A stretch of DNA of 17,832 nt, taken from the IMG/VR virus record IMGVR_UViG_2703718823_000018. One strand, given 5' to 3'. The notes beneath the pieces are model-generated. The model had not been told where the DNA came from. It was given only the letters and a program-made list of their open reading frames with translations, and made no database searches. A program made the translations under genes and the position numbers. Within the stretch, counting starts at the first letter, position 1. Every line of letters starts with the position of its first letter. The DNA is from a virus (taxonomy: Duplodnaviria > Heunggongvirae > Uroviricota > Caudoviricetes). Below, piece after piece: positions 545 through 13,402 of the stretch.

Positions 545-550
545 GCATGT

Positions 551-576
551 AAAAAGGCTCCTGCGATGAGGAGCCT
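551..576 (-). terminator. Intrinsic terminator, minus-strand orientation, downstream of the tRNA array
   Basis: Perfect 8-bp stem (aggctcct 555-562 / aggagcct 569-576); on the minus strand it is followed by TTTTT (complement of 551-555). Confidence 0.5.
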
Positions 577-883
577 GGATATATGCCTAATCTCTGTATA
601 CAGCATGATGCCGGGTGCCTCCCGGTGAGTTCAGTATCAGCACCTGAACCCGCACCAGATAAGGGATATAACCAACCACCTGTCGCTGATATGCCCCTCC
701 GCACAGGGGGATTCACCATGCCAGTTTCTTTTAACAAATACTCAGTCTGACAGGCAACTGTCAACTGACTGAATTGTGAGACATTTAAAATTTTCGGGGC
801 ATGACTGATACCCGGCTAACCACCTGATGCTTCCTTTTTTAGCAACAAACAGGTCCACCAAAGTGAGACAGAAAAAATAAGTG

Positions 884-960
884 TGGCGCGTTGTACTGGA
901 TTCGAACCAGTGACCGATTGCTTAGAAGGCAATTGCTCTGTCCGGCTGAGCTAACAACGC
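884..960 (-). tRNA. tRNA-Arg (anticodon UCU)
   Basis: Reverse complement gcgttgttagctcagccggacagagcaattgccttctaagcaatcggtcactggttcgaatccagtacaacgcgcca folds as a cloverleaf: 7-bp acceptor stem, TTCGAAT T-loop, anticodon loop cTTCTAa, 3' CCA. Confidence 0.85.
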
Positions 961-973
961 ATGATGCTGATAA

Positions 974-1050
974 TGGACCGCCATCGAGGACTCGAACCCC
1001 GCGCAGCCAGCTCCGAAGGCTGGCGCTCTATCCCGATGAGCTAATGGCGG
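974..1050 (-). tRNA. tRNA-Arg (anticodon UCG)
   Basis: Reverse complement ccgccattagctcatcgggatagagcgccagccttcggagctggctgcgcggggttcgagtcctcgatggcggtcca: acceptor ccgccat/atggcgg with a C1:G72 pair, anticodon loop cTTCGGa, TTCGAGT T-loop, CCA end. Confidence 0.75.
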
Positions 1051-1059
1051 TATGTGATA

Positions 1060-1135
1060 TGGTGGCCCTTGCTGGATTTGAACCAGCGACCTGGCGATTA
1101 TGAGTCGCTCGCTCTCACCACTGAGCTAAAGGGCC
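1060..1135 (-). tRNA. tRNA with CAU anticodon, most likely tRNA-Ile2 (ileX/ileZ-like); Met cannot be excluded from the anticodon alone
   Basis: Reverse complement ggccctttagctcagtggtgagagcgagcgactcataatcgccaggtcgctggttcaaatccagcaagggccacca: cloverleaf with anticodon loop cTCATAa. Closely resembles the E. coli ileX sequence as I recall it. The Ile-Arg-Arg trio downstream of Q is typical of lambdoid and Stx phages. Confidence 0.8.
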
Positions 1136-2799: not shown

Positions 2800-3372
2800 T
2801 TATTGATCAGTTTGCAACATTTTTTTCTCTGTAACAAAAGCCATACGCATGGGGGCATGTAACATAAATTCAGATATCCCCAACCACTGATCAATTCGGC
2901 GTCTGCACGTAACCAACGTCCACTCAGGATGATCTGCATTTAACCTTTCGGCCATTTTCAGTTTGCTCATTCCCCGTCCTTCGTACCTTTGCCGGAGAAT
3001 ATTGATTAGTCCGGGATATTCCCCAAGCACCTCACTGATAACGCGATCAATAATCAACGCCTCTGTGTCTGTACAATGTGACAACCAGCTCTTCTGCTTC
3101 CCTCTGGTCATATCCCGAAAAAATGCCTCAAGTTCCGGTTTTTCCAGCCCGGATTTCTTCATTCTGCGTAAAACCTCATTAACTGCTGTTTTCGTCAGCT
3201 TTTTCGAAACCAGTAACCGGTTAAACATATTTCCGGATTTACCCCCACCGATATACGACCACCGCCCCCACATCCGTAATTTCCCCTGGATCCAGACTGC
3301 TTCCAGCGTGTTCAGGCGTAAATGTTCGCCGCTTTTGCCTGTAATTTCCGGATATATCATATTTACGCTCAC
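2800..3372 (-). CDS. Late-gene antiterminator Q-like protein
   Basis: 190-aa ORF immediately downstream of rusA and upstream of terminators and the tRNA array (canonical Q position). Contains RMWGRWSY, resembling the RWGAWA block of 21/DLP12-type Q proteins as I recall them. Start is either GTG at 3372 (GTGA overlap with the rusA stop) or ATG at 3360. Confidence 0.6.
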   Translation of the reverse strand: MSVNMIYPEITGKSGEHLRLNTLEAVWIQGKLRMWGRWSYIGGGKSGNMFNRLLVSKKLTKTAVNEVLRRMKKSGLEKPELEAFFRDMTRGKQKSWLSHCTDTEALIIDRVISEVLGEYPGLINILRQRYEGRGMSKLKMAERLNADHPEWTLVTCRRRIDQWLGISEFMLHAPMRMAFVTEKKMLQTDQ

Positions 3373-3734
3373 TCACTCTCAATTTTGTAAATCTTCACAC
3401 CCAGCCGACCACCAAGAACAAGCTGACCACGTACAATATTGATTTCATCAAACTGCTCATCGTCCATTAACAACCCCGCATGCGTAAGCGCATCCAGCGG
3501 TGCTTTCAGAATATTGTCCAGGTCACGGCGGCGCTTATCCGGTGGTTCTGCAATAATTTTTATTGCCAACCGTCCGGACAGGCTTAATTTCAAGCGCTGC
3601 TGGCGAACAATAAGCGCCACTGCCCGGCGATAACGCTCCCCGGCTTTTGATACAAAATATGTGCTGCCACGGCGTCGCCAGTAAGTGTTCACCGTCGGCG
3701 GGTAAGGCAAAACAAATTCTATGCGTTCGGTCAT
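3369..3734 (-). CDS. rusA: RusA-family Holliday junction resolvase
   Basis: 121 aa, MTERIEFVLPYPPTVNTYWRRRG...DKRRRDLDNILKAPLDALTHAGLLMDDEQ; the DxRRRDLDN acidic block is the RusA catalytic signature. ATG directly abuts the upstream stop (TAAATG). Confidence 0.85.
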   Translation of the reverse strand: MTERIEFVLPYPPTVNTYWRRRGSTYFVSKAGERYRRAVALIVRQQRLKLSLSGRLAIKIIAEPPDKRRRDLDNILKAPLDALTHAGLLMDDEQFDEINIVRGQLVLGGRLGVKIYKIESE

Positions 3735-4799
3735 TTATGCTTTCCACTTCAGAACACCCGAATTTCTCGCGTGCATTAAAAAACGAATCAGCAACAACAG
3801 CTGACTGCCGTGTTTCTCTTCAAAATCTTTTACTCCGGCGTGTAGTTCGTTATGGCATTTACGGCACAACGGAATAACAAACAAATCGTCAGCCTTTGTT
3901 CCCATACCTCCCAGTCCATGACCAATGATGTGATGCGGATCATCTGCCTGATTGCCACACGTCATGCATTTCTGCGTTTTTACCCAGCGCGTGTATACAG
4001 GCATCTCTTCCCGTTGTGGTTTCTGGCGCTGGAGATACTGAGCCGGAGATTCCGGATCAACGGCAATGCTGACCACCGTCTTTTCCTGTGGTGGGTTCTG
4101 TTGCTGGTGCTGGTGGACGTGAGGCGGTAGCGCAATATTTTTTGTGCGCTGCTTCAGTATGCTAGTGGCTGTCTGTTCTCCCGGTACGATGTCGCTCTCA
4201 CTGTATACGGAGCGGATTTTTTCCACCGGTAATCCCAGTGAACGACGCAATACAGACTCCGGAAGCGCATCAGCCACCTGATTGCAGACCGCCCACCAGG
4301 ATAATTCGGCCAGCGATAACTCCCTCTCCTGCGTACCGCTGATTGCGTGACGGATGACGTCAATCATCCATGCTGACAGGTTTTGATGAGCAAGTTGCCC
4401 GAGTGATTCGGATGTCTGGTCACGCAGCTGGTTGTCGCAGTGCCAGCACAACACCATCGCGCCGGTACCGTAACGATGTATGACGATTTCACTGTGATGA
4501 TAGTCACCATGAGGCCACTGGCAGGATTTGACATGACGCAACAGCCAGTCAGACAGTGCCCCAGCGCCACCAGCAGCACGAATCACCCGATCATCGCTGA
4601 AAAATGGCAGTAATGATTTATCCTCCGCCAGCGGCTGGCGAACAGCAGGGACGACTCCGGACGGCAGATTACGCATGCTTTTCGGTTCCGGCTCCACCAG
4701 TACTCGAGGGTTATGGAATACCTGCATGGATTCACGGCCTGGCTTAACGATAACCAGACCGAGTTCCGGTACCAGAACAGGTCGAAGTAATACCCGCAC
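3735..4799 (-). CDS. ydfU: DUF968-type protein with C-terminal HNH-like motif (YdfU-like)
   Basis: 354-aa ORF; C-terminus CMTCGNQADDPHHIIGHGLGGMGTKADDLFVIPLCRKCHNELH is an HNH/zinc-finger signature. Position between rem/hok and rusA/Q matches Qin. Annotated start is GTG at 4799 preceded by GGAGG; start uncertain. Confidence 0.65.
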   Translation of the reverse strand: MRVLLRPVLVPELGLVIVKPGRESMQVFHNPRVLVEPEPKSMRNLPSGVVPAVRQPLAEDKSLLPFFSDDRVIRAAGGAGALSDWLLRHVKSCQWPHGDYHHSEIVIHRYGTGAMVLCWHCDNQLRDQTSESLGQLAHQNLSAWMIDVIRHAISGTQERELSLAELSWWAVCNQVADALPESVLRRSLGLPVEKIRSVYSESDIVPGEQTATSILKQRTKNIALPPHVHQHQQQNPPQEKTVVSIAVDPESPAQYLQRQKPQREEMPVYTRWVKTQKCMTCGNQADDPHHIIGHGLGGMGTKADDLFVIPLCRKCHNELHAGVKDFEEKHGSQLLLLIRFLMHARNSGVLKWKA

Positions 4800-4800
4800 A

Positions 4801-5079
4801 TTACCTCCAGATCCGTTGCTGGAATGTGCGGGACGGACGCGCTGGCCGTTCGGAGTAAGGGAGCCTGACGGAGATTATCCAGTGACGGTAGTCGAGGCTA
4901 AGGGCTTTTTTAACCTCGCATCCGCGCCTGCGGTAACACTGAATGAGCCATTCGGCCTGTTCTTCAGTGCATGGGGGATGCTGGTACCAGTCTGACTTAA
5001 ATGCATGAGAATACCGCTCGTGCGTGTGGGCAAGAACGGTCGAATTATCATGATTGTAATATTTTGCGTTGCGTGCCAT
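4801..5079 (-). CDS. Hypothetical protein (92 aa), translationally coupled to the DUF968 gene
   Basis: ATG at 5079 with GGAGA 7 nt upstream; its stop TAA sits immediately before the DUF968 start. Family not recognised. Confidence 0.5.
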   Translation of the reverse strand: MARNAKYYNHDNSTVLAHTHERYSHAFKSDWYQHPPCTEEQAEWLIQCYRRRGCEVKKALSLDYRHWIISVRLPYSERPARPSRTFQQRIWR

Positions 5080-5145
5080 CGGTTTTCTCCGGTGGCACGG
5101 TGTTACTCAGCGGGAGTTCAGCCCCGCGCAAGATTGTAGATGAGT

Positions 5146-5397
5146 TTATTCTTCTGAAAAAGCAGAAAAGCCAGCTTTTATTCCGATCTCTTTCAATGCC
5201 TGTAATGAAGTGACAAACTCACCGTCGCGCAAGATAAATCCGTCCGTCACTCGGGCATCCACAAAATTAATTAACGCAGCCCCATTTTTTTGCAAACACA
5301 CAATGCGGTAATGACTAACAATATTTCCATTTTCAACGCACACAGCATAGAGGCCATCTTCACAAAAAATTTTACGCAGTTCTTCGATGTTCATCAT
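5146..5397 (-). CDS. rem: Small hypothetical protein (83 aa), Rem-like by size and position
   Basis: ATG at 5397 preceded by GGAAGG. 83 aa, the same length and the same position (between ydfU and hokD) as Rem of Qin; sequence identity is not verified. Confidence 0.45.
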   Translation of the reverse strand: MMNIEELRKIFCEDGLYAVCVENGNIVSHYRIVCLQKNGAALINFVDARVTDGFILRDGEFVTSLQALKEIGIKAGFSAFSEE

Positions 5398-5511
5398 CAG
5401 AATCCTTCCGGATAATTAGCTCTCCCCTTTAAGGGACCATCCCTCTTATCCCTGCGCGCTACTTAAGTATTTTTGATTCTATTCCGGCACCGTCCAGAAC
5501 TTCAAATGCGT

Positions 5512-5545
5512 TGAAAATAAAAACAAAAACCCGCCGAAGCGGGTT
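5512..5545 (-). terminator. Intrinsic terminator of the hok transcript
   Basis: On the minus strand: aacccgc-TTCG-gcgggtt hairpin followed by TTTTTGTTTTTATTTT. Confidence 0.55.
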
Positions 5546-5613
5546 AAGTGCGAGTGCGTTGAGGATGCCTGACTCATCAGAGGTGGCGAGGGATTTCTCC
5601 CCCGCCTGGTCTC

Positions 5614-5769
5614 TTACTCCTCAGGTTCGTAAGCTGTGAAGACAGTGACCTCCGTCTGGCCGGTTCGGATTCGTACCTCGCAGAGGTCTTTCCTCGTTAC
5701 CAGTGCCGTCACAATGACGGTAATACAGATGACGATCAGGGCGACTAACATCGCCTTTTGCTGCTTCAT
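5614..5769 (-). CDS. hokD: Hok/Gef-family type I toxin (HokD/RelF-like), 51 aa
   Basis: Translation MKQQKAMLVALIVICITVIVTALVTRKDLCEVRIRTGQTEVTVFTAYEPEE: transmembrane helix plus conserved RKDLCEVR and TEV..FTAYE blocks of Hok proteins. AGGAG 8 nt upstream of the ATG. Absent from the ORF track (below 60 aa). Confidence 0.9.
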   Translation of the reverse strand: MKQQKAMLVALIVICITVIVTALVTRKDLCEVRIRTGQTEVTVFTAYEPEE

Positions 5770-5825
5770 AGCCTGCTTCTCCTTGACCTTTCGGTCCGTA
5801 AGAGGCTAATCTCTATGTGTCGCAT
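5766..5825 (-). CDS. mok-like upstream ORF (19 codons) coupled to hok
   Basis: ATG at 5825 (MRHIEISLLRTERSRRSRL); its TGA overlaps the hok ATG (cTATGAag). The uORF start lies inside a hairpin (tctatg-tgtcg-cataga, 5812-5828). Analogous to mok but much shorter than plasmid R1 mok. Confidence 0.4.
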   Translation of the reverse strand: MRHIEISLLRTERSRRSRL

Positions 5826-6027
5826 AGATATGGCCTCAGATTAATGTTAAGCGTCTTGCAGGACGCGTAATGTTAACTGGGGCTTTTCTCTATCTGCCTT
5901 TTGGTGTTCATGCCTGAGACAGATAGCCTCAAGCACCCGCAGTTATTCTACTTAACTAAGATTTCCCCGCAAACCGTTTTTGTCCGGCACAGTAAATATC
6001 CAACTAAACCAATGGCGTTCGCTGTAT

Positions 6028-6207
6028 TTACCGCCAGTATTCAATGCACATGACCGCCATGAACACCCCTAAAAAAAGGGCATTTATATGTCCAAACATT
6101 AATATCAAAACATCAATTTTTTCCATATACCTTGCTGTGAAGATGATGGGCATACATGATGCGAACAACCAGAACGCAACAAACAAAAACTGCAATGCGT
6201 TTTTCAT
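6028..6207 (-). CDS. Small hydrophobic (two-helix) membrane protein, 59 aa, in an AT-rich island
   Basis: ATG at 6207 preceded by a GGGGG Shine-Dalgarno. Translation MKNALQFLFVAFWLFASCMPIIFTARYMEKIDVLILMFGHINALFLGVFMAVMCIEYWR has two hydrophobic segments. Surrounding DNA is visibly more AT-rich than the flanks. Confidence 0.35.
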   Translation of the reverse strand: MKNALQFLFVAFWLFASCMPIIFTARYMEKIDVLILMFGHINALFLGVFMAVMCIEYWR

Positions 6208-6327
6208 TATTCCCCCTACAATCAATGTGCAATAACATTTAAACACACCTCAATTTGGCCGGACATATAAATATCTAAACCAGAAAAAATCACTTACATA
6301 GCGTTACAAACTCTTTAGTCTAAATAT

Positions 6328-6843
6328 TCATCGTAAAACATCCTCCACGCTTATCAGTCCATTTCGTTTCAGGTAATCCATCGCCTTCTCCGGTAATTTG
6401 CAGTCCGGCTGAGCTTTTTTCAGTTGACTGACCAGTCGTTTAACCCACATTGTTAATTCGCTAACCTGATTGCCGGATGCTGGTGGATTGTCGGCTTTAC
6501 CCAGAATGGCAGCGCAGCAGGCCTCTCTGAGCACCCAGTCAACAGCATCCTTCCATGCTCCTGTTTCGACTGGCGGATTCTCACGCTTTACCTGTTCATA
6601 AAAGCGCACGGCTTTAACCAGTCCTTCTGATGTCACCGGGACTGGCGGGCCGATGAATAAGGCCTGAATTTCATAGTTCGGCCTGTCGTTACAATCCTCT
6701 TTTGTCGGTACATATTTCCAGTCACCAGCCCACGGCTTCCCCTGAAAGTCTGTAACGTCTTTTTTCACGTAGCGATATCGCCATGCAACTGGTTTTGCCT
6801 GCCCTGCCGTTTCATGCCCTTCCTGATAATTAATCTTGCTCAT
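6328..6843 (-). CDS. Hypothetical protein (171 aa)
   Basis: ATG at 6843 overlapping the stop of the upstream small ORF (ATGA). Codon composition looks coding; family not recognised. Confidence 0.6.
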   Translation of the reverse strand: MSKINYQEGHETAGQAKPVAWRYRYVKKDVTDFQGKPWAGDWKYVPTKEDCNDRPNYEIQALFIGPPVPVTSEGLVKAVRFYEQVKRENPPVETGAWKDAVDWVLREACCAAILGKADNPPASGNQVSELTMWVKRLVSQLKKAQPDCKLPEKAMDYLKRNGLISVEDVLR

Positions 6844-7016
6844 TCATCGCCCCACTCATCACAATATGCTTCGACCGGAGTTTTTCCTGCTTCATAATCA
6901 TCACGCCATGCTTCAGCATCAGCAGCACTGCCACCACGTAACTCTGCATAGTCCATTAACAGTTCATGCCATGCTTCAAAACTGACGTTGTATTTAGTTG
7001 AACCAAAATCAGCCAT
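6840..7016 (-). CDS. Small acidic protein (58 aa), not in the ORF track
   Basis: ATG at 7016 with AGGAAG upstream. Translation MADFGSTKYNVSFEAWHELLMDYAELRGGSAADAEAWRDDYEAGKTPVEAYCDEWGDE. Stop overlaps the next start (ATGA). Confidence 0.45.
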   Translation of the reverse strand: MADFGSTKYNVSFEAWHELLMDYAELRGGSAADAEAWRDDYEAGKTPVEAYCDEWGDE

Positions 7017-7191
7017 TTTGCTCTTCCTCTTCGTCTTTTATTTCGTGATATGAGTAATTGCAGTAGTTAAAGAAAATATCTTTTGCTTCGTCATGTATTT
7101 CATCAGGCGTCGCATCATCATCCACTTCGAATTCATCCTCGAAATCTCCACCGGCTATTCCCGTTTCAATAATTATTTTAAACTTTCGCAT
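7009..7191 (-). CDS. Small highly acidic protein (60 aa)
   Basis: ATG at 7191. MRKFKIIIETGIAGGDFEDEFEVDDDATPDEIHDEAKDIFFNYCNYSYHEIKDEEEEQNG is strongly D/E-rich. Overlaps the next gene start by 8 nt. Confidence 0.45.
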   Translation of the reverse strand: MRKFKIIIETGIAGGDFEDEFEVDDDATPDEIHDEAKDIFFNYCNYSYHEIKDEEEEQNG

Positions 7192-7284
7192 TTAACTACC
7201 GCCCTTTCGGGCGGCCTCCTGATGTTCTGAGGGTGCAGAAATCCCTCCGGTTAAGGATTAAATTTTTAACAGAGCTAAATTTAA

Positions 7285-7641
7285 TTATTCAGTTCTGGAT
7301 TTTGTCGCCCTGCGTATCCGCGCTTTCGCGTTACGCTCAATCTGAATTAGCTTTTCTATATTTTTTCGCCTTTCCCGCTCCTCCTGGCGCAAGTGCCTTA
7401 CATCATCTGCCAGTCTGGTTTCTCTTTTCGCCACAGAGAGCATCCAGTCAAATGGCTCCACAACTGCACCGCAGATTTTACAGCGGACCTGACGCTCTTT
7501 TTCGTCAACCCGGACAGAGGCGTGATGACAATATGGTCTTTCCGATGGCTCATAAAGAAAATTAACCTGATTACGAGGGTCATCCTCTTTTACCGGAAAT
7601 AAAACGATATTGCTTAACTCATCCTCTGGTTTTATTTCCAT
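7285..7641 (-). CDS. Hypothetical protein with putative zinc-ribbon (118 aa)
   Basis: ATG at 7641 with AGGAGAGG upstream. Contains C-H-H...C-x2-C (PYCHHASVRVDEKERQVRCKICG) and a basic C-terminal tail. Confidence 0.55.
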   Translation of the reverse strand: MEIKPEDELSNIVLFPVKEDDPRNQVNFLYEPSERPYCHHASVRVDEKERQVRCKICGAVVEPFDWMLSVAKRETRLADDVRHLRQEERERRKNIEKLIQIERNAKARIRRATKSRTE

Positions 7642-8080
7642 GCTCCTCTCCTTTGATGCGAATGCCAGAGACGCGTAATGCGTGTTCTAGGTCAATCAGG
7701 TAAAGCCAACTGCCATTTTCTTTAGGTATCATGACATGTCGCTCATCTGCATTTATCGGGTGTCCATATCGAAGGTCGTAGCGAGTCGGTAATTGAACTT
7801 CCCGCGCTTCCAGTTCAGCAATACGCTTGCTCCCATCAGAGATAACGCCTTCGTAATACTCACGCTGCTCTTTGAGTTGTGATTTTGCTTCTTCCAGTCC
7901 ATCCAGCAAATCAGCGATAATATCCGCTTCCCGATGACGGATGTGACGCTTAAACGCAGCAAGAGCCGCATCACAATCCCGTTCAGCATTTGGGCTGTCC
8001 GGGATAGCCTGATACCACGCCAGCGTCGACTGATAGTTTTGTGCTGCCTCACGAAGCGCCTCATAGTTAACCTCTCTCAT
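7619..8080 (-). CDS. Hypothetical protein (153 aa)
   Basis: ATG at 8080 with GGAGGTGG upstream; ATGA overlap with the upstream stop. Confidence 0.6.
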   Translation of the reverse strand: MREVNYEALREAAQNYQSTLAWYQAIPDSPNAERDCDAALAAFKRHIRHREADIIADLLDGLEEAKSQLKEQREYYEGVISDGSKRIAELEAREVQLPTRYDLRYGHPINADERHVMIPKENGSWLYLIDLEHALRVSGIRIKGEEHGNKTRG

Positions 8081-8373
8081 TGAGCCACCTCCTGATAAAT
8101 CACTGCATGCCCCAGTTTCTCCGCCAGTGCCAGCTCTGCCTTAGCGCCCGCTGACCGCTGCCAGCCATTCAGCATGTAAATCGCATCCACACAACGAATC
8201 ATTGCCATGCAAATATCCATGTAGTGCGGCTGTGTCAGCCCGTCCGGAAGTACTGCCGGGTTTAAGACGGTATGCCCTTCCCGTTTCAGTTCCTCTTCCG
8301 CCTTGTGAAACGCCTCACGGTTGAAATTTTCATATCCCGTCATTGGACCGGCAATATAAACTCTGCCCCTCAC
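8077..8373 (-). CDS. DUF4406-like protein (nucleoside 2-deoxyribosyltransferase-like fold), 98 aa
   Basis: GTG start at 8373 overlapping the upstream stop (GTGA), with AGGAGG 9 nt upstream. RVYIAGPMTGYENFN...VLNP is the characteristic N-terminal motif of this fold. The longer ORF-track start would overlap the upstream gene. Confidence 0.55.
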   Translation of the reverse strand: MRGRVYIAGPMTGYENFNREAFHKAEEELKREGHTVLNPAVLPDGLTQPHYMDICMAMIRCVDAIYMLNGWQRSAGAKAELALAEKLGHAVIYQEVAQ

Positions 8374-8762
8374 TCCATCACCTCCTGAAAGTTTCCCCGA
8401 TAGAACGCCAGCACACGCTGCATAACTTCGCTCTGGCGGCACTCACGACAAATTATGTTCTGCCGTCTGTTGTAACGACGTATTTCTCCGTCAGGTAACT
8501 TTCGAATCAGTGTCGGGTCAGCAGCCTTCTCCGGTATCTTACGCCATACGCGATACGCCTGCTCTGATGGAAATACCCCGCAACCAGAGAGCCAGACATC
8601 ACCACTGGCCGCAAGCGCACCAGATAAACGACGAATAGCGGTCTTACTGACACCCGTTTTATCTGCCAGTTGTCGAAAAGTTTCTCGTCCGCTCAGGCGC
8701 ACGAATTCCACAATGCGCGCCTTCACTTCTTCCCGCTCTTCTGGTGTAAATACTTTTGCCAT
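8370..8762 (-). CDS. Helix-turn-helix DNA-binding protein (130 aa)
   Basis: ATG at 8762 with GGAGG 5 nt upstream. HTH-like segment RETFRQLADKTGVSKTAIRRLSGAL and a C-x2-C pair near the C-terminus. Confidence 0.6.
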   Translation of the reverse strand: MAKVFTPEEREEVKARIVEFVRLSGRETFRQLADKTGVSKTAIRRLSGALAASGDVWLSGCGVFPSEQAYRVWRKIPEKAADPTLIRKLPDGEIRRYNRRQNIICRECRQSEVMQRVLAFYRGNFQEVME

Positions 8763-8777
8763 AAGCGCCTCCGGCAA

Positions 8778-9548
8778 TCACTTTTCCGATACAACACGGC
8801 GGGAAGAATCAGTAATCTGTCGAACAATATCCCGGTGCTTGTTCAGCTCCCGCAGCGCGGCGCAGACTCGCTCCCACTTCTGAACATCACTTTTCGCCCT
8901 GCGCAGCGCCAGGTTTGCCCTGCGAAGGGACGGAAAAATCAGCTCATCTGCTTGCGTTTCGGTAAACGATGGCAACGGCTGCACAATGTCCGCCACAGTT
9001 TCTGTTTTAATTTCTTCCTGTGTTGCGGCTTCCCGGACTGGTAACGCAGCACCTGCTGGCTGAGGAAAGGCCTTACCATCACTTTCCGTTACCAGCGCGG
9101 CTTTCGGCTCTGCTGGTAAATTATCGCCCGGCATGCAGTAACGAAATTTACCGTTCTGATTAACGCGTGCCAGCCGCCCCGTTGCGGTTACCACCGCCAG
9201 CGTGGAGGCAACCTTGCGAGTACTGACGCCGAACTTACCCGCCAGTTCCTCACACGTTTTAGCACCATCCTGACCGATAAACTCAATCATCATGTCTGCG
9301 GTAACTTTTTGTTCGACCTCTCCGGTCAGCATATCCTGTGCTTCAGATTTTACTGGCCGCTCTTCGGTTACCCGGGATTCACCTTCGCCAGCCAGAAACC
9401 AGGTGTGACCAGTTTTATCAACGACGCCATTTCTTTTGAGTTCCCACAGCTCGTTGAGAACCTCTTCACGACTGATATCAAGTCGCGCGGCCAGTTCTAC
9501 CGATGTGGCTTTTCCCATTGCTTTCAGTGCGTCAAATACGGTTTCCAT
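8778..9548 (-). CDS. Hypothetical protein with two tandem winged-helix-like repeats (256 aa)
   Basis: ATG at 9548 with GGAGG 8 nt upstream (the ORF-track start at 9566 is a TTG). Two similar segments, [30 protein letters not shown]... and [28 protein letters not shown]..., suggest an internal duplication. Confidence 0.6.
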
Positions 9549-9581: not shown

Positions 9582-10247
9582 TCAAATAAAACCAGCTGCC
9601 TTCCGGCGTTCGTATTCCTGTTTCAGCCGTTCAATTGGCGTTGGCCCTTGCGGGTGTTTCGCCCCTTCCAGTTGTCGTCGCACTGGCGGAACACTCATCC
9701 CGTTACCAACATGCTTTGCCCATTTCGTCAGTTGCCGTTCCGCAAGTCGTTTTAACTCACCCTGCGTCATCTGGCGCTCAATCCCTCTGGTACGCATTTC
9801 GAGGCAGATGTGGTACAGCACAGGCTGAGGCCACGGATATTTGTCGCTTCCGTCATATCGCCAGGACTCATCACGCCAGCGGCGGTACTCCTCCATCACA
9901 GCATCCACCGTCAGGCCAAATGGATTGGCCCCGCTTTCTGAAATCAGCGCCACAAACTCAGCCAGGTCCGGAGGCCATGTTTCACCCGCCCGGCAGCGGT
10001 CCATGCACTGGCGGCAGACCTGTCGGATTTGCTGCTCAGTCATCGCGCCAATCTGTGCAATCCAGAGCTTCGAAGGTGCGGCCCCGTTCTTCTGGGTCCA
10101 GCGGTTCGAATAAACCTCCCCCATGAGTTCCCACAGCTTCCAGACCGTTTCCGTCGCTGATAAATCCGTTTTCACGTTCCCACTGCTCACGTGCTGCCCG
10201 AATTTCCTGAACTGCCCGTGATGCGGTGCCACCTGGTGCTGCTGCAT
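9582..10247 (-). CDS. Replication protein P-like (DnaB helicase loader)
   Basis: ATG at 10247 with GGGGG 6 nt upstream. C-terminal two thirds align by eye to lambda P (PDLAEFVALI..., YPWPQPVLYHICLEM, LKRLAERQLTKWAKHVGNG). The N-terminal 212 nt overlap the 3' end of the O-like gene in another frame, so the true start is uncertain (an alternative ATG at 10043 overlaps the O stop). Confidence 0.7.
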   Translation of the reverse strand: MQQHQVAPHHGQFRKFGQHVSSGNVKTDLSATETVWKLWELMGEVYSNRWTQKNGAAPSKLWIAQIGAMTEQQIRQVCRQCMDRCRAGETWPPDLAEFVALISESGANPFGLTVDAVMEEYRRWRDESWRYDGSDKYPWPQPVLYHICLEMRTRGIERQMTQGELKRLAERQLTKWAKHVGNGMSVPPVRRQLEGAKHPQGPTPIERLKQEYERRKAAGFI

Positions 10248-11076
10248 GGTTTACCCCCTTGCTGACTGGTTTAACCTGCGCCCTGACGTGATTTACGTGA
10301 CGGGCGAATTTCTGCTCCCACTGAATCTGCGTAAACACTTTCCCCTCCGCTGCCCAGTAGTCCCGGAAGGCGGCAAGTTCAGCAGGTGTAAATTCTGTCT
10401 CCGGCAAAGCCATCCCCCACAACGCAGCCCGTCGTCGAAAATCCCGTGACGGATACCAGCTATCGGTCATCGGAAATTTTCCGATGGGTTCGCTCAGGCC
10501 ATCCAGGAATACAAGGGGTGCTGCCTGTAACGACAAAACTTCCTGCTCACTGGTCGGAGCACTCTCGCGTGCGTTATGTGTGGGGTTTAGATCTTTGGGT
10601 TCCTTTGGGTTCCGTGATCCGTTTTTGGGTGTCTTTGATGGAAAATTTGGGTGTCTTTGGTTATTTTCCATGCAGCTAAGAGTTCCGTTTTTGGGTCTGT
10701 TTTGTGCTGAAACATAACCATTTTCGGTACTGTTTTTATTAACAGCACCAATTTTACCCACCTTTAAAGACTCCCGTTTTTGGGTGTATTCAGGCTCGGC
10801 AACACTTTCTTCTACACCGATAAGTCGGTACACCACAATTTGCTTTGTTCTGCCTTTTCTCTCACCGGTATCAACAATTAACCCAATCTCCATCAGGTGT
10901 CGTAAGCTGTCCTGCACAGTCTTTTTGTTTAGTTCCGTTACTTCTGCCAGTGCAGATACAGACGGGTATGCACACAAATCGGCACCGCACATATCAGCAA
11001 GCCAGGTCAATACAGACTTACTGGATGAACTGCCGGTTTTCACCTTTTTAGCCCATCGTAGTGCATCGATACTCAT
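10036..11076 (-). CDS. Replication initiator O-like protein (N-terminal winged-helix, repeat-containing linker, DnaT-like C-terminal region)
   Basis: ATG at 11076 (MSIDALRWAKK...) with AGGGG upstream. Linker with PKNG repeats is encoded by the iteron DNA. The ORF-track start at 11151 would overlap the upstream gene by about 100 nt. Confidence 0.75.
   Translation of the reverse strand: MSIDALRWAKKVKTGSSSSKSVLTWLADMCGADLCAYPSVSALAEVTELNKKTVQDSLRHLMEIGLIVDTGERKGRTKQIVVYRLIGVEESVAEPEYTQKRESLKVGKIGAVNKNSTENGYVSAQNRPKNGTLSCMENNQRHPNFPSKTPKNGSRNPKEPKDLNPTHNARESAPTSEQEVLSLQAAPLVFLDGLSEPIGKFPMTDSWYPSRDFRRRAALWGMALPETEFTPAELAAFRDYWAAEGKVFTQIQWEQKFARHVNHVRAQVKPVSKGVNHAAAPGGTASRAVQEIRAAREQWERENGFISDGNGLEAVGTHGGGLFEPLDPEERGRTFEALDCTDWRDD
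10595..10787. repeat. Replication-origin iterons inside the O gene (six TTTGGGT-core repeats plus an AT-rich segment)
   Basis: TTTGGGT at 10595, 10604, 10624, 10646, 10690 and 10779; three share the longer form YCCGTTTTTGGGT. AT-rich stretch at 10711-10760 lies between the repeats. Same layout as ori-lambda. Confidence 0.65.
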
Positions 11077-11599
11077 ACAAACCCCTGGCAGACATTTGTT
11101 TATCTGCAAAGTAATATTGATATTGCTGACGATACGCATGCTTGAAAGCAATAGCTTTTTCTATAAGCTCGTCAGTCTCACGTTCCACAACAGCTGGATC
11201 CGCAAAAAGCAGCCCGGACTCCACCACATCGCCATATTCTTTGTTTAATCCGGCGATCATGTACGTAATGCTTTTTCCATCACTGATCTCACGATACAAC
11301 CTGAAATCACTAATTCGGATAGCCTCCATAATTGCCGGAATCAGCGCCGTGAATTTTTTCCGCTTATCCCTGGTGTCGATAGCTTTCCAGCGTTCGAATA
11401 TCTTCACCCGGTTAACGCCCAGCGCCCGTTGATCAACCTCGCCATCATTAAACGTGACGCGTTGAACATCGATGTTCGGGCGTTCTTTCAGAGCCCAGAA
11501 TGCTTCCGTGATTAATATCGTCGCTTGCTCCTGTGTCATTCCTGGTCGACATACCCAGGCATCCAGAGCCTCACAAACCTGTTCAGGGGTGATTTTCAT
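11048..11599 (-). CDS. YdaT-like (CII-position) regulatory protein, 183 aa
   Basis: ATG at 11599, overlapping the dicC-like stop by 17 nt. Contains IDTRDKRKKF, resembling the YdaT block as I recall it; occupies the cII position after Cro. Confidence 0.5.
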   Translation of the reverse strand: MKITPEQVCEALDAWVCRPGMTQEQATILITEAFWALKERPNIDVQRVTFNDGEVDQRALGVNRVKIFERWKAIDTRDKRKKFTALIPAIMEAIRISDFRLYREISDGKSITYMIAGLNKEYGDVVESGLLFADPAVVERETDELIEKAIAFKHAYRQQYQYYFADKQMSARGLYEYRCTTMG

Positions 11600-11810
11600 T
11601 GTTCAACCGCCCCGCCCGCTTTGCCTTACGATATTCGTCATAAACTTTGGGGTCGTACTGAAGTTCCCCGCCGGATGCCTCCTGTAGACGCATCGCGCGA
11701 CCTTCAGGAACCAGTTTCCCCCATGCAGCAACGCTTGCCAGCCTAACTCCTGCGGCATTGGCAAGCTTTGTTTTGCTGCCAAAAAACGCTATAGCATCAA
11801 TTTTCAACAT
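11583..11810 (-). CDS. dicC: DicC/YdaS-like Cro-type regulator (75 aa)
   Basis: ATG at 11810 with AAGGAG upstream. MLKIDAIAFFGSKTKLANAAGVRLASVAAWGKLVPEGRAMRLQEASGGELQYDPKVYDEYRK. Divergent from the dicA-like repressor across a 76-bp operator region. Confidence 0.7.
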   Translation of the reverse strand: MLKIDAIAFFGSKTKLANAAGVRLASVAAWGKLVPEGRAMRLQEASGGELQYDPKVYDEYRKAKRAGRLNNENHP

Positions 11811-11886: not shown

Positions 11887-12294
11887 ATGAAAAACGAAAC
11901 CTTCGGTGCTCGCCTCTTATACAGGCGTAAAAAATTAAAACTGTCTCAGGCCGCATTAGGTAAGCTGGTCAAAGTGGCTCACGTAACAATTTCTCAATGG
12001 GAAAGAGATGAAACACAGCCAGCGGGGAAGAGATTATTCGCACTGAGCCAGGCGCTTCAGTGCTCGCCGACTTGGCTTCTTTTTGGAGATGAAGATAAGC
12101 AACCAGGCGAACCGATCTCAGATAATCAGCCAGTTAATCTGACAGAAGATCAAAAAGAGTTGCTTCAACTGTTCGACGCACTGCCTGAGTCAGAGCAAAA
12201 GGCTCTGTTGTCAGAGATGCGTGCTCGAGTTGAGAATTTCAACAAACTTTTTGAAGAACTACTCAAAGCTCGCAAAAGAAGCGCAAATAAATAA
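11887..12294 (+). CDS. dicA: DicA-like HTH (XRE-family) prophage repressor, 135 aa
   Basis: N-terminal HTH (LKLSQAALGKLVKVAHVTISQWERDETQP), no LexA-type peptidase domain; blocks such as FALSQALQCSPTWLLFGDEDKQP and MRARVENFNKLFEELLKARKR match my recollection of K-12 DicA (135 aa). Confidence 0.85.
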   Translation: MKNETFGARLLYRRKKLKLSQAALGKLVKVAHVTISQWERDETQPAGKRLFALSQALQCSPTWLLFGDEDKQPGEPISDNQPVNLTEDQKELLQLFDALPESEQKALLSEMRARVENFNKLFEELLKARKRSANK

Positions 12295-13344: not shown

Positions 13345-13402
13345 TTTCTGGTGACGTTTGGCGGTATCAGTTTTACTCCGTGACTGCTCTGCCACCCTTT
13401 TT
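13345..13402 (+). ncRNA. dicF: DicF small RNA
   Basis: tttctggtgacgtttggcggtatcagttttactccgtgactgctctgccaccc followed by TTTTT matches my recollection of the 53-nt DicF sequence at all but about one position; located between ydfA and dicB as in Qin. Exact ends are approximate. Confidence 0.8.

Follow-up and report, generated by a model that had tools for sequence, protein, structure and literature searches.

The 17,832-nt stretch of DNA analysed here (the window) is the virus record IMGVR_UViG_2703718823_000018 of IMG/VR (Caudoviricetes). Between positions 6328 and 9548 it carries a block of eight consecutive open reading frames (ORFs) on the minus strand, which we call O1 to O8 from the lambda-P-like replication gene towards hokD. 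This block very likely forms the accessory portion of the early-right (pR) operon in a lambdoid prophage of the Rac/Qin type, and is a mosaic of modules, not one system. We classify the prophage as Rac/Qin-type because DicF and dicB are located on its other arm. The block is 100% identical to part of a prophage that E. coli STEC2018-607 carries beside yccA (NZ_CP075697). A preliminary description, made from the letters of the window, had listed eight minus-strand ORFs between the replication genes and hok. All of its coordinates and lengths agree with ours (Table 1). The placement is right for the span from P to hokD, but O8 ends about 560 bases short of hokD (5770–6327) and the block does not abut hok; the interval holds an Rfam match to sok and an unannotated, hydrophobic small ORF.

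The eight ORFs tile the block, leaving 108 of its 3221 bases non-coding. Five of the seven internal junctions overlap: O2/O3 by GTGA, O3/O4 and O7/O8 by ATGA, O4/O5 by 23 nt and O6/O7 by 8 nt (ATGGCTGA). O1 and O2 are separated by 15 nt that contain GGAGG, O5 and O6 by 93 nt, and P and O1 by 33 nt, all junctions being read on the reverse-complement sequence. A purine-rich Shine-Dalgarno sequence is present at all eight starts, which, with the overlaps, bears out the tight coupling first proposed. The same eight coding sequences were called by the NCBI annotation pipeline (PGAP) in NZ_CP075697, annotated in order as DUF1627, DUF977, DUF4406, ead/Ea22-like, hypothetical, DUF7167, hypothetical and hypothetical. 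Each matched a PHROG family (expectation value, E, from 2e-22 to 8.5e-136). In a codon comparison with diverged copies from six phage records, the ratio of non-synonymous to synonymous differences (pN/pS) was 0.00–0.49 across the eight ORFs, all of which are under purifying selection. Because of the PGAP calls, the PHROG matches and the pN/pS values, we regard the ORFs as genuine genes and not chance ORFs, as had been argued; their co-expression, argued at the same time, is probable. A consensus scan found no promoter-like or terminator-like sequence on the coding strand within the block, consistent with co-transcription, and no Rfam family passed its gathering threshold inside 6328–9548. The GC content is 0.43–0.54 over most of the block, a low-GC patch at 6001–6500 excepted.

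Table 1 The eight genes of the block and other features of the window.
Feature	Position	Strand	Description
O1, 256 aa, ATG start	8778..9548	-	DUF1627/YdaW; winged helices at about aa 1-57 and 84-140; C-terminal helical DUF1627 part
O2, 130 aa, ATG start	8370..8762	-	DUF977/LygF; winged helix and C-terminal motif; lambda Ren homologue
O3, 98 aa, GTG start within the GTGA overlap	8077..8373	-	DUF4406
O4, 153 aa	7619..8080	-	Ead/Ea22 family; Ea22-type N-terminus and coiled coil; unrelated C-terminal domain
O5, 118 aa	7285..7641	-	phrog_1621; predicted CHCC zinc ribbon and long helix aa 63-117
O6 translation-start element	7192..7225	-	AGGAGG, GAAA-loop hairpin, ATG
O6, 60 aa	7009..7191	-	DUF7167, strongly acidic
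O7, 58 aa	6840..7016	-	C-terminal part of phrog_519, acidic
O8, 171 aa	6328..6843	-	phrog_660; four-segment mosaic
P	9582-10043		Phage_lambda_P (Pfam), lambda-P-like replication gene
O	10036-11076		DnaT-like initiator (Pfam)
Cro	11583-11810		Pfam
cI-like gene	11887-12294		DUF1391 and a hypothetical gene come next in RefSeq
hokD and sok	5614-5938		ORF list and Rfam
DUF968/HNH	3735-4799		Pfam, beyond hok
RusA	3369-3734		Pfam, beyond hok
Q-like DUF1133 protein	2800-3372		Pfam, beyond hok
STnc100	545-750	-	Rfam
Three tRNA genes	887-1135	-	Rfam
sok	5767-5938	-	Rfam
DicF	13346-13397	+	Rfam

Profile searches, which had been suggested for each ORF, placed every one in a PHROG family and most also in Pfam families. 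The first guesses at folds (helix-turn-helix (HTH), duplicated winged helix, zinc ribbon and DUF4406) were supported by Pfam and by the alignment and model of O5. The view that none of the genes belongs to a recognised, characterised family was correct in that none is NinB/Orf or NinG/Rap, but O2 is a homologue of lambda Ren and O4 a member of the Ea22 family.

O1 is a YdaW-type protein. It matches Pfam DUF1627 (PF07789; E = 9.2e-99, 328 bits against a cut-off of 28.1) and phrog_630 (E = 8.5e-136), and its identity with K-12 YdaW is 60% over aa 1–154, a range that includes both winged helices. Sub-threshold Pfam HTH matches fall at aa 2–48 and 86–133, and pN/pS is 0.30–0.49. Between its second winged helix and the N-terminus of O2 there is a weak similarity (E = 5e-4). 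We rejected a Z-alpha reading of O1 and O2: the PDB matches to such domains (ADAR1, E3 and PKZ) were weak (E 0.075–0.8) and, by eye, the equivalents of Asn173 and Tyr177 are not conserved in either domain of O1.

O2 matches Pfam DUF977 (E = 3.1e-41) and phrog_142, the 'Ren-like exclusion protein' family (E = 5.6e-43). Lambda Ren itself matches phrog_142 (E = 1.6e-41), aligns with O2 by BLASTP (E = 4e-9, 29% identity over 90 aa) and has the same ECRQS..M.RVLA.Y motif at its C-terminus. Because O2 aligns with lambda Ren and both belong to phrog_142, we equate DUF977/LygF with the Ren family. The order P, O1, O2 downstream of the replication genes is the position expected of that family, and LygF likewise directly follows O or DnaC/YdaW in PhiR42_1, 689R5 and PhiR5_2. 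Two differences from lambda concern the gene itself: Ren has 96 aa whereas O2 has 130, and O1 intervenes between P and O2. Genetically, Ren is known as a factor of resistance to Rex exclusion, and lambda ren mutants become sensitive to it; unlike in lambda, rexAB is not annotated in the prophage of the window (RefSeq annotation). Through this link, thousands of entries annotated as 'DUF977 family' acquire a name and a phenotype that can be tested.

O3 matches Pfam DUF4406 (PF14359; E = 7.7e-38, 129 bits against a cut-off of 22) and phrog_355, which is labelled 'nucleoside 2-deoxyribosyltransferase' (E = 3.7e-48). Below the Pfam cut-offs it also matches DUF1937 (E = 1.6e-4) and Nuc_deoxyrib_tr (PF05014; E = 0.042). 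Its pN/pS is 0.09–0.13. Among 582 homologues across Enterobacterales and Vibrio, the invariant residues include Y6, G9, P10, M11 and G13 as well as S74, G76, A77, A79, E80 and K86, and the protein carries two motifs, one of YIAGPM type at the N-terminus and, at the C-terminus, S.GA.AE, in which the Glu is invariant. By eye, we take these two motifs to resemble those of nucleoside 2-deoxyribosyltransferases and Rcl. The family annotation and the sub-threshold Pfam matches would place O3 in the N-(deoxy)ribosyltransferase-like group. The PHROG label and the motifs liken it to nucleoside 2-deoxyribosyltransferases and Rcl-type N-glycosidases, from which it differs in having just 98 aa; the equivalence of E80 to the catalytic Glu was judged by eye only. 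Neither the single sequence nor a 30-sequence DUF4406 profile found relatives of O3 in the PDB. DUF4406 genes also occur in a P22-like ea region and a P2/186-like early operon, beside methylases and an exonuclease. A literature search found no functional studies on DUF4406, DUF7167, PF13935 or PF14359.

O4 belongs to the Ead/Ea22 family (Pfam Ead_Ea22, PF13935, E = 9.5e-12, 46.1 bits against a cut-off of 27; phrog_250, E = 1.3e-40). It aligns with lambda Ea22 over aa 1–108 only (BLASTP E = 8e-17), and the two have in common an N-terminal MSEIN.QALREAAE-type motif and the coiled coil EQREYYEGVISDGSKRIA.LE. No lambda-type C-terminal domain was found in O4, either by alignment past aa 108 or by a sequence match in the PDB, and its own C-terminal domain is unrelated to the solved one of lambda Ea22. 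Published work divides Ea22 into three parts, of which the N-terminal domain and the coiled coil are followed by a C-terminal domain that varies between phages (PMC10834534). The N-terminus and coiled coil of O4, found without the lambda C-terminal domain, fit this three-domain picture. Ea22 has a pro-lysogenic effect (PMC10834534, PMC7093339). The last 16 residues of O4 (...GIRIKGEEHGNKTRG) match separate PHROG families, phrog_37408 and phrog_19884, and the corresponding 16 codons contain the Shine-Dalgarno sequence and start of O5 (7619–7668, minus strand). This end motif looks like a conserved gene-boundary sequence used in module exchange.

O5 matches phrog_1621 (E = 2e-56) and has 151 homologues across Enterobacterales. 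In an alignment of 40 sequences, C38, H40, C54 and C57 are invariant, and the motif LR.EE..RR.NI.KLIQIERNAKARIRR is invariant or nearly so; pN/pS is 0.08–0.13. The AlphaFold2 model (mean predicted local distance difference test, pLDDT, 75) consists of beta strands at 43–46 and 51–54, beta residues 60–61 and a single 55-residue helix, aa 63–117, with values of 76–96 in the blocks covering the helix, whose C-terminal half is basic and conserved. The acidic N-terminus is conserved, was modelled with low confidence and is probably disordered. Foldseek searches of the model against the PDB and BFVD returned a generic zinc ribbon only, with non-significant E; the best match was the N-terminal zinc ribbon of TFIIB (probability 0.94, E = 0.25). 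The Pfam profile Zn_Ribbon_TF scored 21.6 bits, under its cut-off of 29. With four conserved metal ligands, two knuckles and the ribbon fold in the model, O5 is a predicted zinc-ribbon protein. A TraR/DksA-like reading of O5, considered because orf73 in the exo-xis region of lambda is TraR-like, found no support in Pfam and is speculation.

The O5 family is also found outside blocks of this kind. In prophages of Serratia (L010, L011), Yersinia (L012, L013), Klebsiella (L014, L015) and Erwinia (L018) the O5 homologue is located at the distal end of the nin region (gene coordinates 5001–5400 in these loci, 4536–4922 in L013). In all but one locus it has a 4-nt overlap with the end of RusA, NinG, NinH or YbcO, the last in one of the two Klebsiella loci. 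The antiterminator follows it directly or, in some cases, after one small ORF; the antiterminator slot is filled by PF03589 or PF06530 in three genera and by an unassigned 204-aa protein in Serratia. In two Salmonella loci (L016, L017) the O5 homologue is downstream of DUF1627-DUF977, as in the window. A family with a clear architecture that is conserved just before Q in several enterobacterial genera may be an unrecognised transcription- or Q-linked factor of lambdoid phages.

O6 and O7 are acidic mini-proteins. O6 matches Pfam DUF7167 (PF23768; E = 7.9e-15, 55.1 bits against a cut-off of 24.4) and phrog_1997 (E = 9e-31), with an isoelectric point (pI) of 4.05 and pN/pS of 0–0.12. Its AGGAGG is 23 nt from the ATG, and between them is a GAAA-loop hairpin (GCCGCCC/GGGCGGT) that appears in both the minimum-free-energy and the centroid fold. 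The 34-nt start element is identical in the phages 689R5 and ArgO145, where the upstream gene is different. Folding of the predicted hairpin would bring the Shine-Dalgarno sequence and the ATG to about 7 nt from each other, a split arrangement of the kind described for T4 genes 25 and 38. O7 (pI 4.06) matches positions 76–137 of the 143 in phrog_519 (E = 2e-22); its pN/pS is 0.05–0.25 in three of four comparisons and undefined in the fourth, which has no synonymous differences. Neither O7 nor O8 matched a Pfam family.

O8 matches phrog_660 (E = 1.2e-74). In our alignment (A1) it divides into four exchangeable segments: first an N-terminal tag like that of Ea22, then one beta module (aa 18–62) and two helical modules (aa 66–114 and 115–171). 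Many of its 1643 homologues cover 56–67% of O8, and some carry DUF551 or Ead_Ea22. A Foldseek search of O8 against the PDB gave nothing meaningful (best E 0.65). Truncated O8-type proteins in other genomes end in the same ...I(G/R)IKGE/D motif as O4.

The distribution of the genes shows the mosaic directly. We searched 5,426 complete E. coli genomes by megablast and scored a gene as present when at least 80% of the query length was matched. Genomes with any match, and those with at least 80%, numbered 2722 and 1570 for O1, 994 and 538 for O2, 1210 and 1202 for O3, 1092 and 837 for O4, 1679 and 1679 for O5, 1909 and 1751 for O6 and O7 together, and 2100 and 295 for O8. The whole 3.2-kb block had any match in 3771 genomes and a match of at least 80% in 189. 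Single genes are thus present in 5–32% of genomes (295–1751) and the whole combination in only 3.5%. No phage record held at least 80% of the block.

Gene order varies in the same way. The closest counterpart in layout, the region ydaV-ydaW-lygF-rac19-ead-rac21-rac22 of Rac-SA53 (KU052037), has a P-like gene, DUF1627/YdaW, LygF/DUF977, DUF4406 and Ead/Ea22 in the order of the window, with hok downstream, but rac21, rac22 and IS1 follow ead in place of O5–O8; the Rac prophage of K-12 is truncated within ydaW. In 689R5 the order is O, a short LygF, a 99-aa O3 homologue, Ea22, O5, O6, O7, a shorter O8 and another Ea22; in pPE4 it is P, YdaW, Ead, O6, O7 and an O8 variant. PhiR5_2 has O, DnaC, YdaW, LygF, further genes and NinB, and PhiR42_1 has O, LygF and a methyltransferase. 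YdaW and LygF thus accompany the replication module, in the slot of lambda's ren, and the rest are shuffled.

The second half of the block has relatives in another operon. In the Shiga toxin (Stx) phage ArgO145, the exo-xis region of the pL operon, between exo and int, contains an Ea22-like gene, O5, an extra gene, O6, O7 and another Ea22-like gene. The exo-xis region of ArgO145 is similar to the window in that Ea22-like genes flank O5, O6 and O7, and different in that the window's cassette is located after P in the pR operon, not in the pL operon. The matches to ArgO145 and related Stx phages cover 495–1341 of the query (6822–7668 of the window), starting in the first codons of O8 and ending about 27 nt upstream of the O5 start. 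In these alignments the homology breakpoints fall at gene boundaries. Exo-xis and ea-type products bias lysis and lysogeny in lambda and Stx phages (PMC7093339). Exo-xis genes studied in Stx phages for their part in lysogeny and induction are thus also present in a Rac/Qin-type pR operon, and the conserved boundary sequences illustrate how modules are shuffled.

Taken as the accessory end of a pR operon, the block would work as follows. The eight genes would share one message with the replication genes and be translated by stop/start coupling, each coupling Shine-Dalgarno sequence being embedded in the end of the upstream gene. O1 and O2 are probably small factors that bind nucleic acid or protein and protect or tune phage replication, and O3 is probably a small enzyme, an N-glycosidase or a transferase, with nucleosides or nucleotides as its substrates. 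O4–O8 would form an 'ea-type' cassette of a coiled-coil protein, a zinc ribbon with a helix, two acidic mini-proteins and a mosaic with an Ea22 N-terminus. Modules would be exchanged by recombination at conserved gene-boundary sequences, the candidate sites being the N-terminal codons of Ea22, the junction of ...IRIKGEE with the Shine-Dalgarno sequence ahead of O5, and the hairpin and Shine-Dalgarno sequence ahead of O6.

Several points weigh against this account or its parts. The 93-nt gap between O5 and O6 interrupts the coupling, an internal promoter or a Rho-dependent terminator within the block is possible, and a weak terminator-like hairpin is located at the end of P (9591–9607, minus strand; a 5-bp stem followed by TTTATTT, in the last P codons before O1). 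This hairpin could attenuate read-through into the block, loosely like lambda tR2. Lambda Ren itself did not match Pfam DUF977. For O3, hhalign of the DUF4406 profile with the nucleoside deoxyribosyltransferase of L. leichmannii (1F8X, to which the sequence used was verified as identical) gave a probability of 0.6%, and so lent the transferase assignment no direct profile support. The AlphaFold2 model of O8 is of low confidence (pLDDT 56), with only the blocks of the beta module, 21–60, modelled confidently (82–84).

A different explanation, which we consider possible but unlikely, is that the block is a counter-defence or host-takeover island in which each protein neutralises host or resident-prophage immunity: YdaW acting on retron toxins, O2 on Rex-like abortive infection, the acidic O6 and O7 as mimics of DNA or protein, and DUF4406 by breaking down a nucleotide that serves as signal or substrate. 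Small size, early position, variability and mosaic make-up are traits that these genes share with many anti-defence genes. Over-expressed K-12 ydaW was among the prophage 'blockers' of the retron-Sen2 toxin RcaT (bioRxiv 10.1101/2020.06.22.160242), and O1 shares both winged helices with it; however, the screen relied on over-expression, and what it expressed was the product of a truncated pseudogene. The Ren homologue O2 points the same way, since Ren and Rex interact in a two-hybrid assay (bioRxiv 10.1101/2021.04.19.439022), but rexAB is not annotated beside the cI-like gene of this prophage. The low pI values of O6 and O7 would suit mimics, although acidity alone is weak evidence. Searches with defence and anti-defence models (PADLOC) yielded sub-threshold HTH-type matches only (best E 3.9e-5, 21.6 bits), as did NCBIfam (sub-threshold HTH matches), and PDB sequence searches with O1, O2, O3, O4, O5 and O8 found nothing significant. 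It is rather improbable that even one product is a new counter-defence or regulatory factor; O1 and O5 are the candidates, and by analogy with the K-12 ydaW screen O1 may be an inhibitor of retron-type toxins.

Another reading takes the block as a prophage defence or toxin-antitoxin cassette, expressed in the lysogen and protecting the host from other phages, and this is very unlikely. The block is near hok/sok, PHROG's category for Ren-like proteins is 'moron, auxiliary metabolic gene and host takeover', and some DUF977 domains occur as fusions with Fic toxins (PMC2686095). Against this, the PADLOC matches are not significant, the GC content outside 6001–6500 is not moron-like, and the genes overlap early lytic genes. 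As there is no promoter consensus inside the block, expression should depend on the pR promoter, which is repressed in a lysogen.

The least probable reading, in which the block does the work of the lambda nin region and supplies recombination or replication helpers (NinB/Orf, NinG/Rap, NinI or Roi), is largely refuted by sequence: the eight proteins had no BLASTP match (E ≤ 1) to NinB–NinI, Q, O or P of lambda, where only Ren and Ea22 matched, and no Nin Pfam family was hit. The preliminary description, which had called the block a nin-region equivalent and named homology to well-characterised nin functions as what would overturn its view of the genes as unassigned, was right as to position. 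As in lambda nin, small overlapping genes on one strand lie downstream of P and upstream of Q and are mosaic among lambdoid phages; the difference is that no ORF is related in sequence to a Nin protein. The nin-type genes of this prophage, for DUF968/HNH, RusA and the Q-like DUF1133 protein, are separate and lie beyond hok, and relatives of O4–O8 are found in the pL exo-xis region of ArgO145. O5 relatives alone occur in classical nin regions, beside RusA, NinG, NinH and Q in other Enterobacterales.

As the accessory part of a pR operon the block is ordinary. All eight genes belong to catalogued families and are widespread in sequenced E. coli, and since mosaic lambdoid early regions are catalogued as well, the block in itself has little discovery value.

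Some observations concern the surroundings of the block. Outside the 3.2 kb the window is not collinear with NZ_CP075697 (about 4800–5600 against about 7840–8440): the offset between the two shifts by about 367 bases between hokD and a 92-aa ORF upstream of DUF968, which indicates an insertion or deletion between the two prophages in that interval. Between O8 and sok/hok, within the 6001–6500 patch (GC 0.40), is the small ORF at 6028–6246 (minus strand; alternative ATG at 6207). Its product of 59–72 aa is very hydrophobic (MKNALQFLFVAFWLFASCMPIIF...MAVMCIEYWR) and resembles two transmembrane helices, and a GGGGGA Shine-Dalgarno-like sequence is present. Pfam, PHROG, NCBIfam and PADLOC searches with it were blank, and it has no RefSeq annotation in the identical prophage. 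At the far end of the window, STnc100 is related to the PasD small RNAs according to a 2026 preprint, in which DUF1627 genes are typical neighbours of PasA and PasC. Finally, the record PP818812 ('Actinobacillus phage vB_Apl-pPE4') has about 90% nucleotide identity to this E. coli Rac-type early region and shares genes that include ydaT, P, YdaW, Ead and hok; its host, Actinobacillus pleuropneumoniae, looks doubtful, unless the transfer was very recent.

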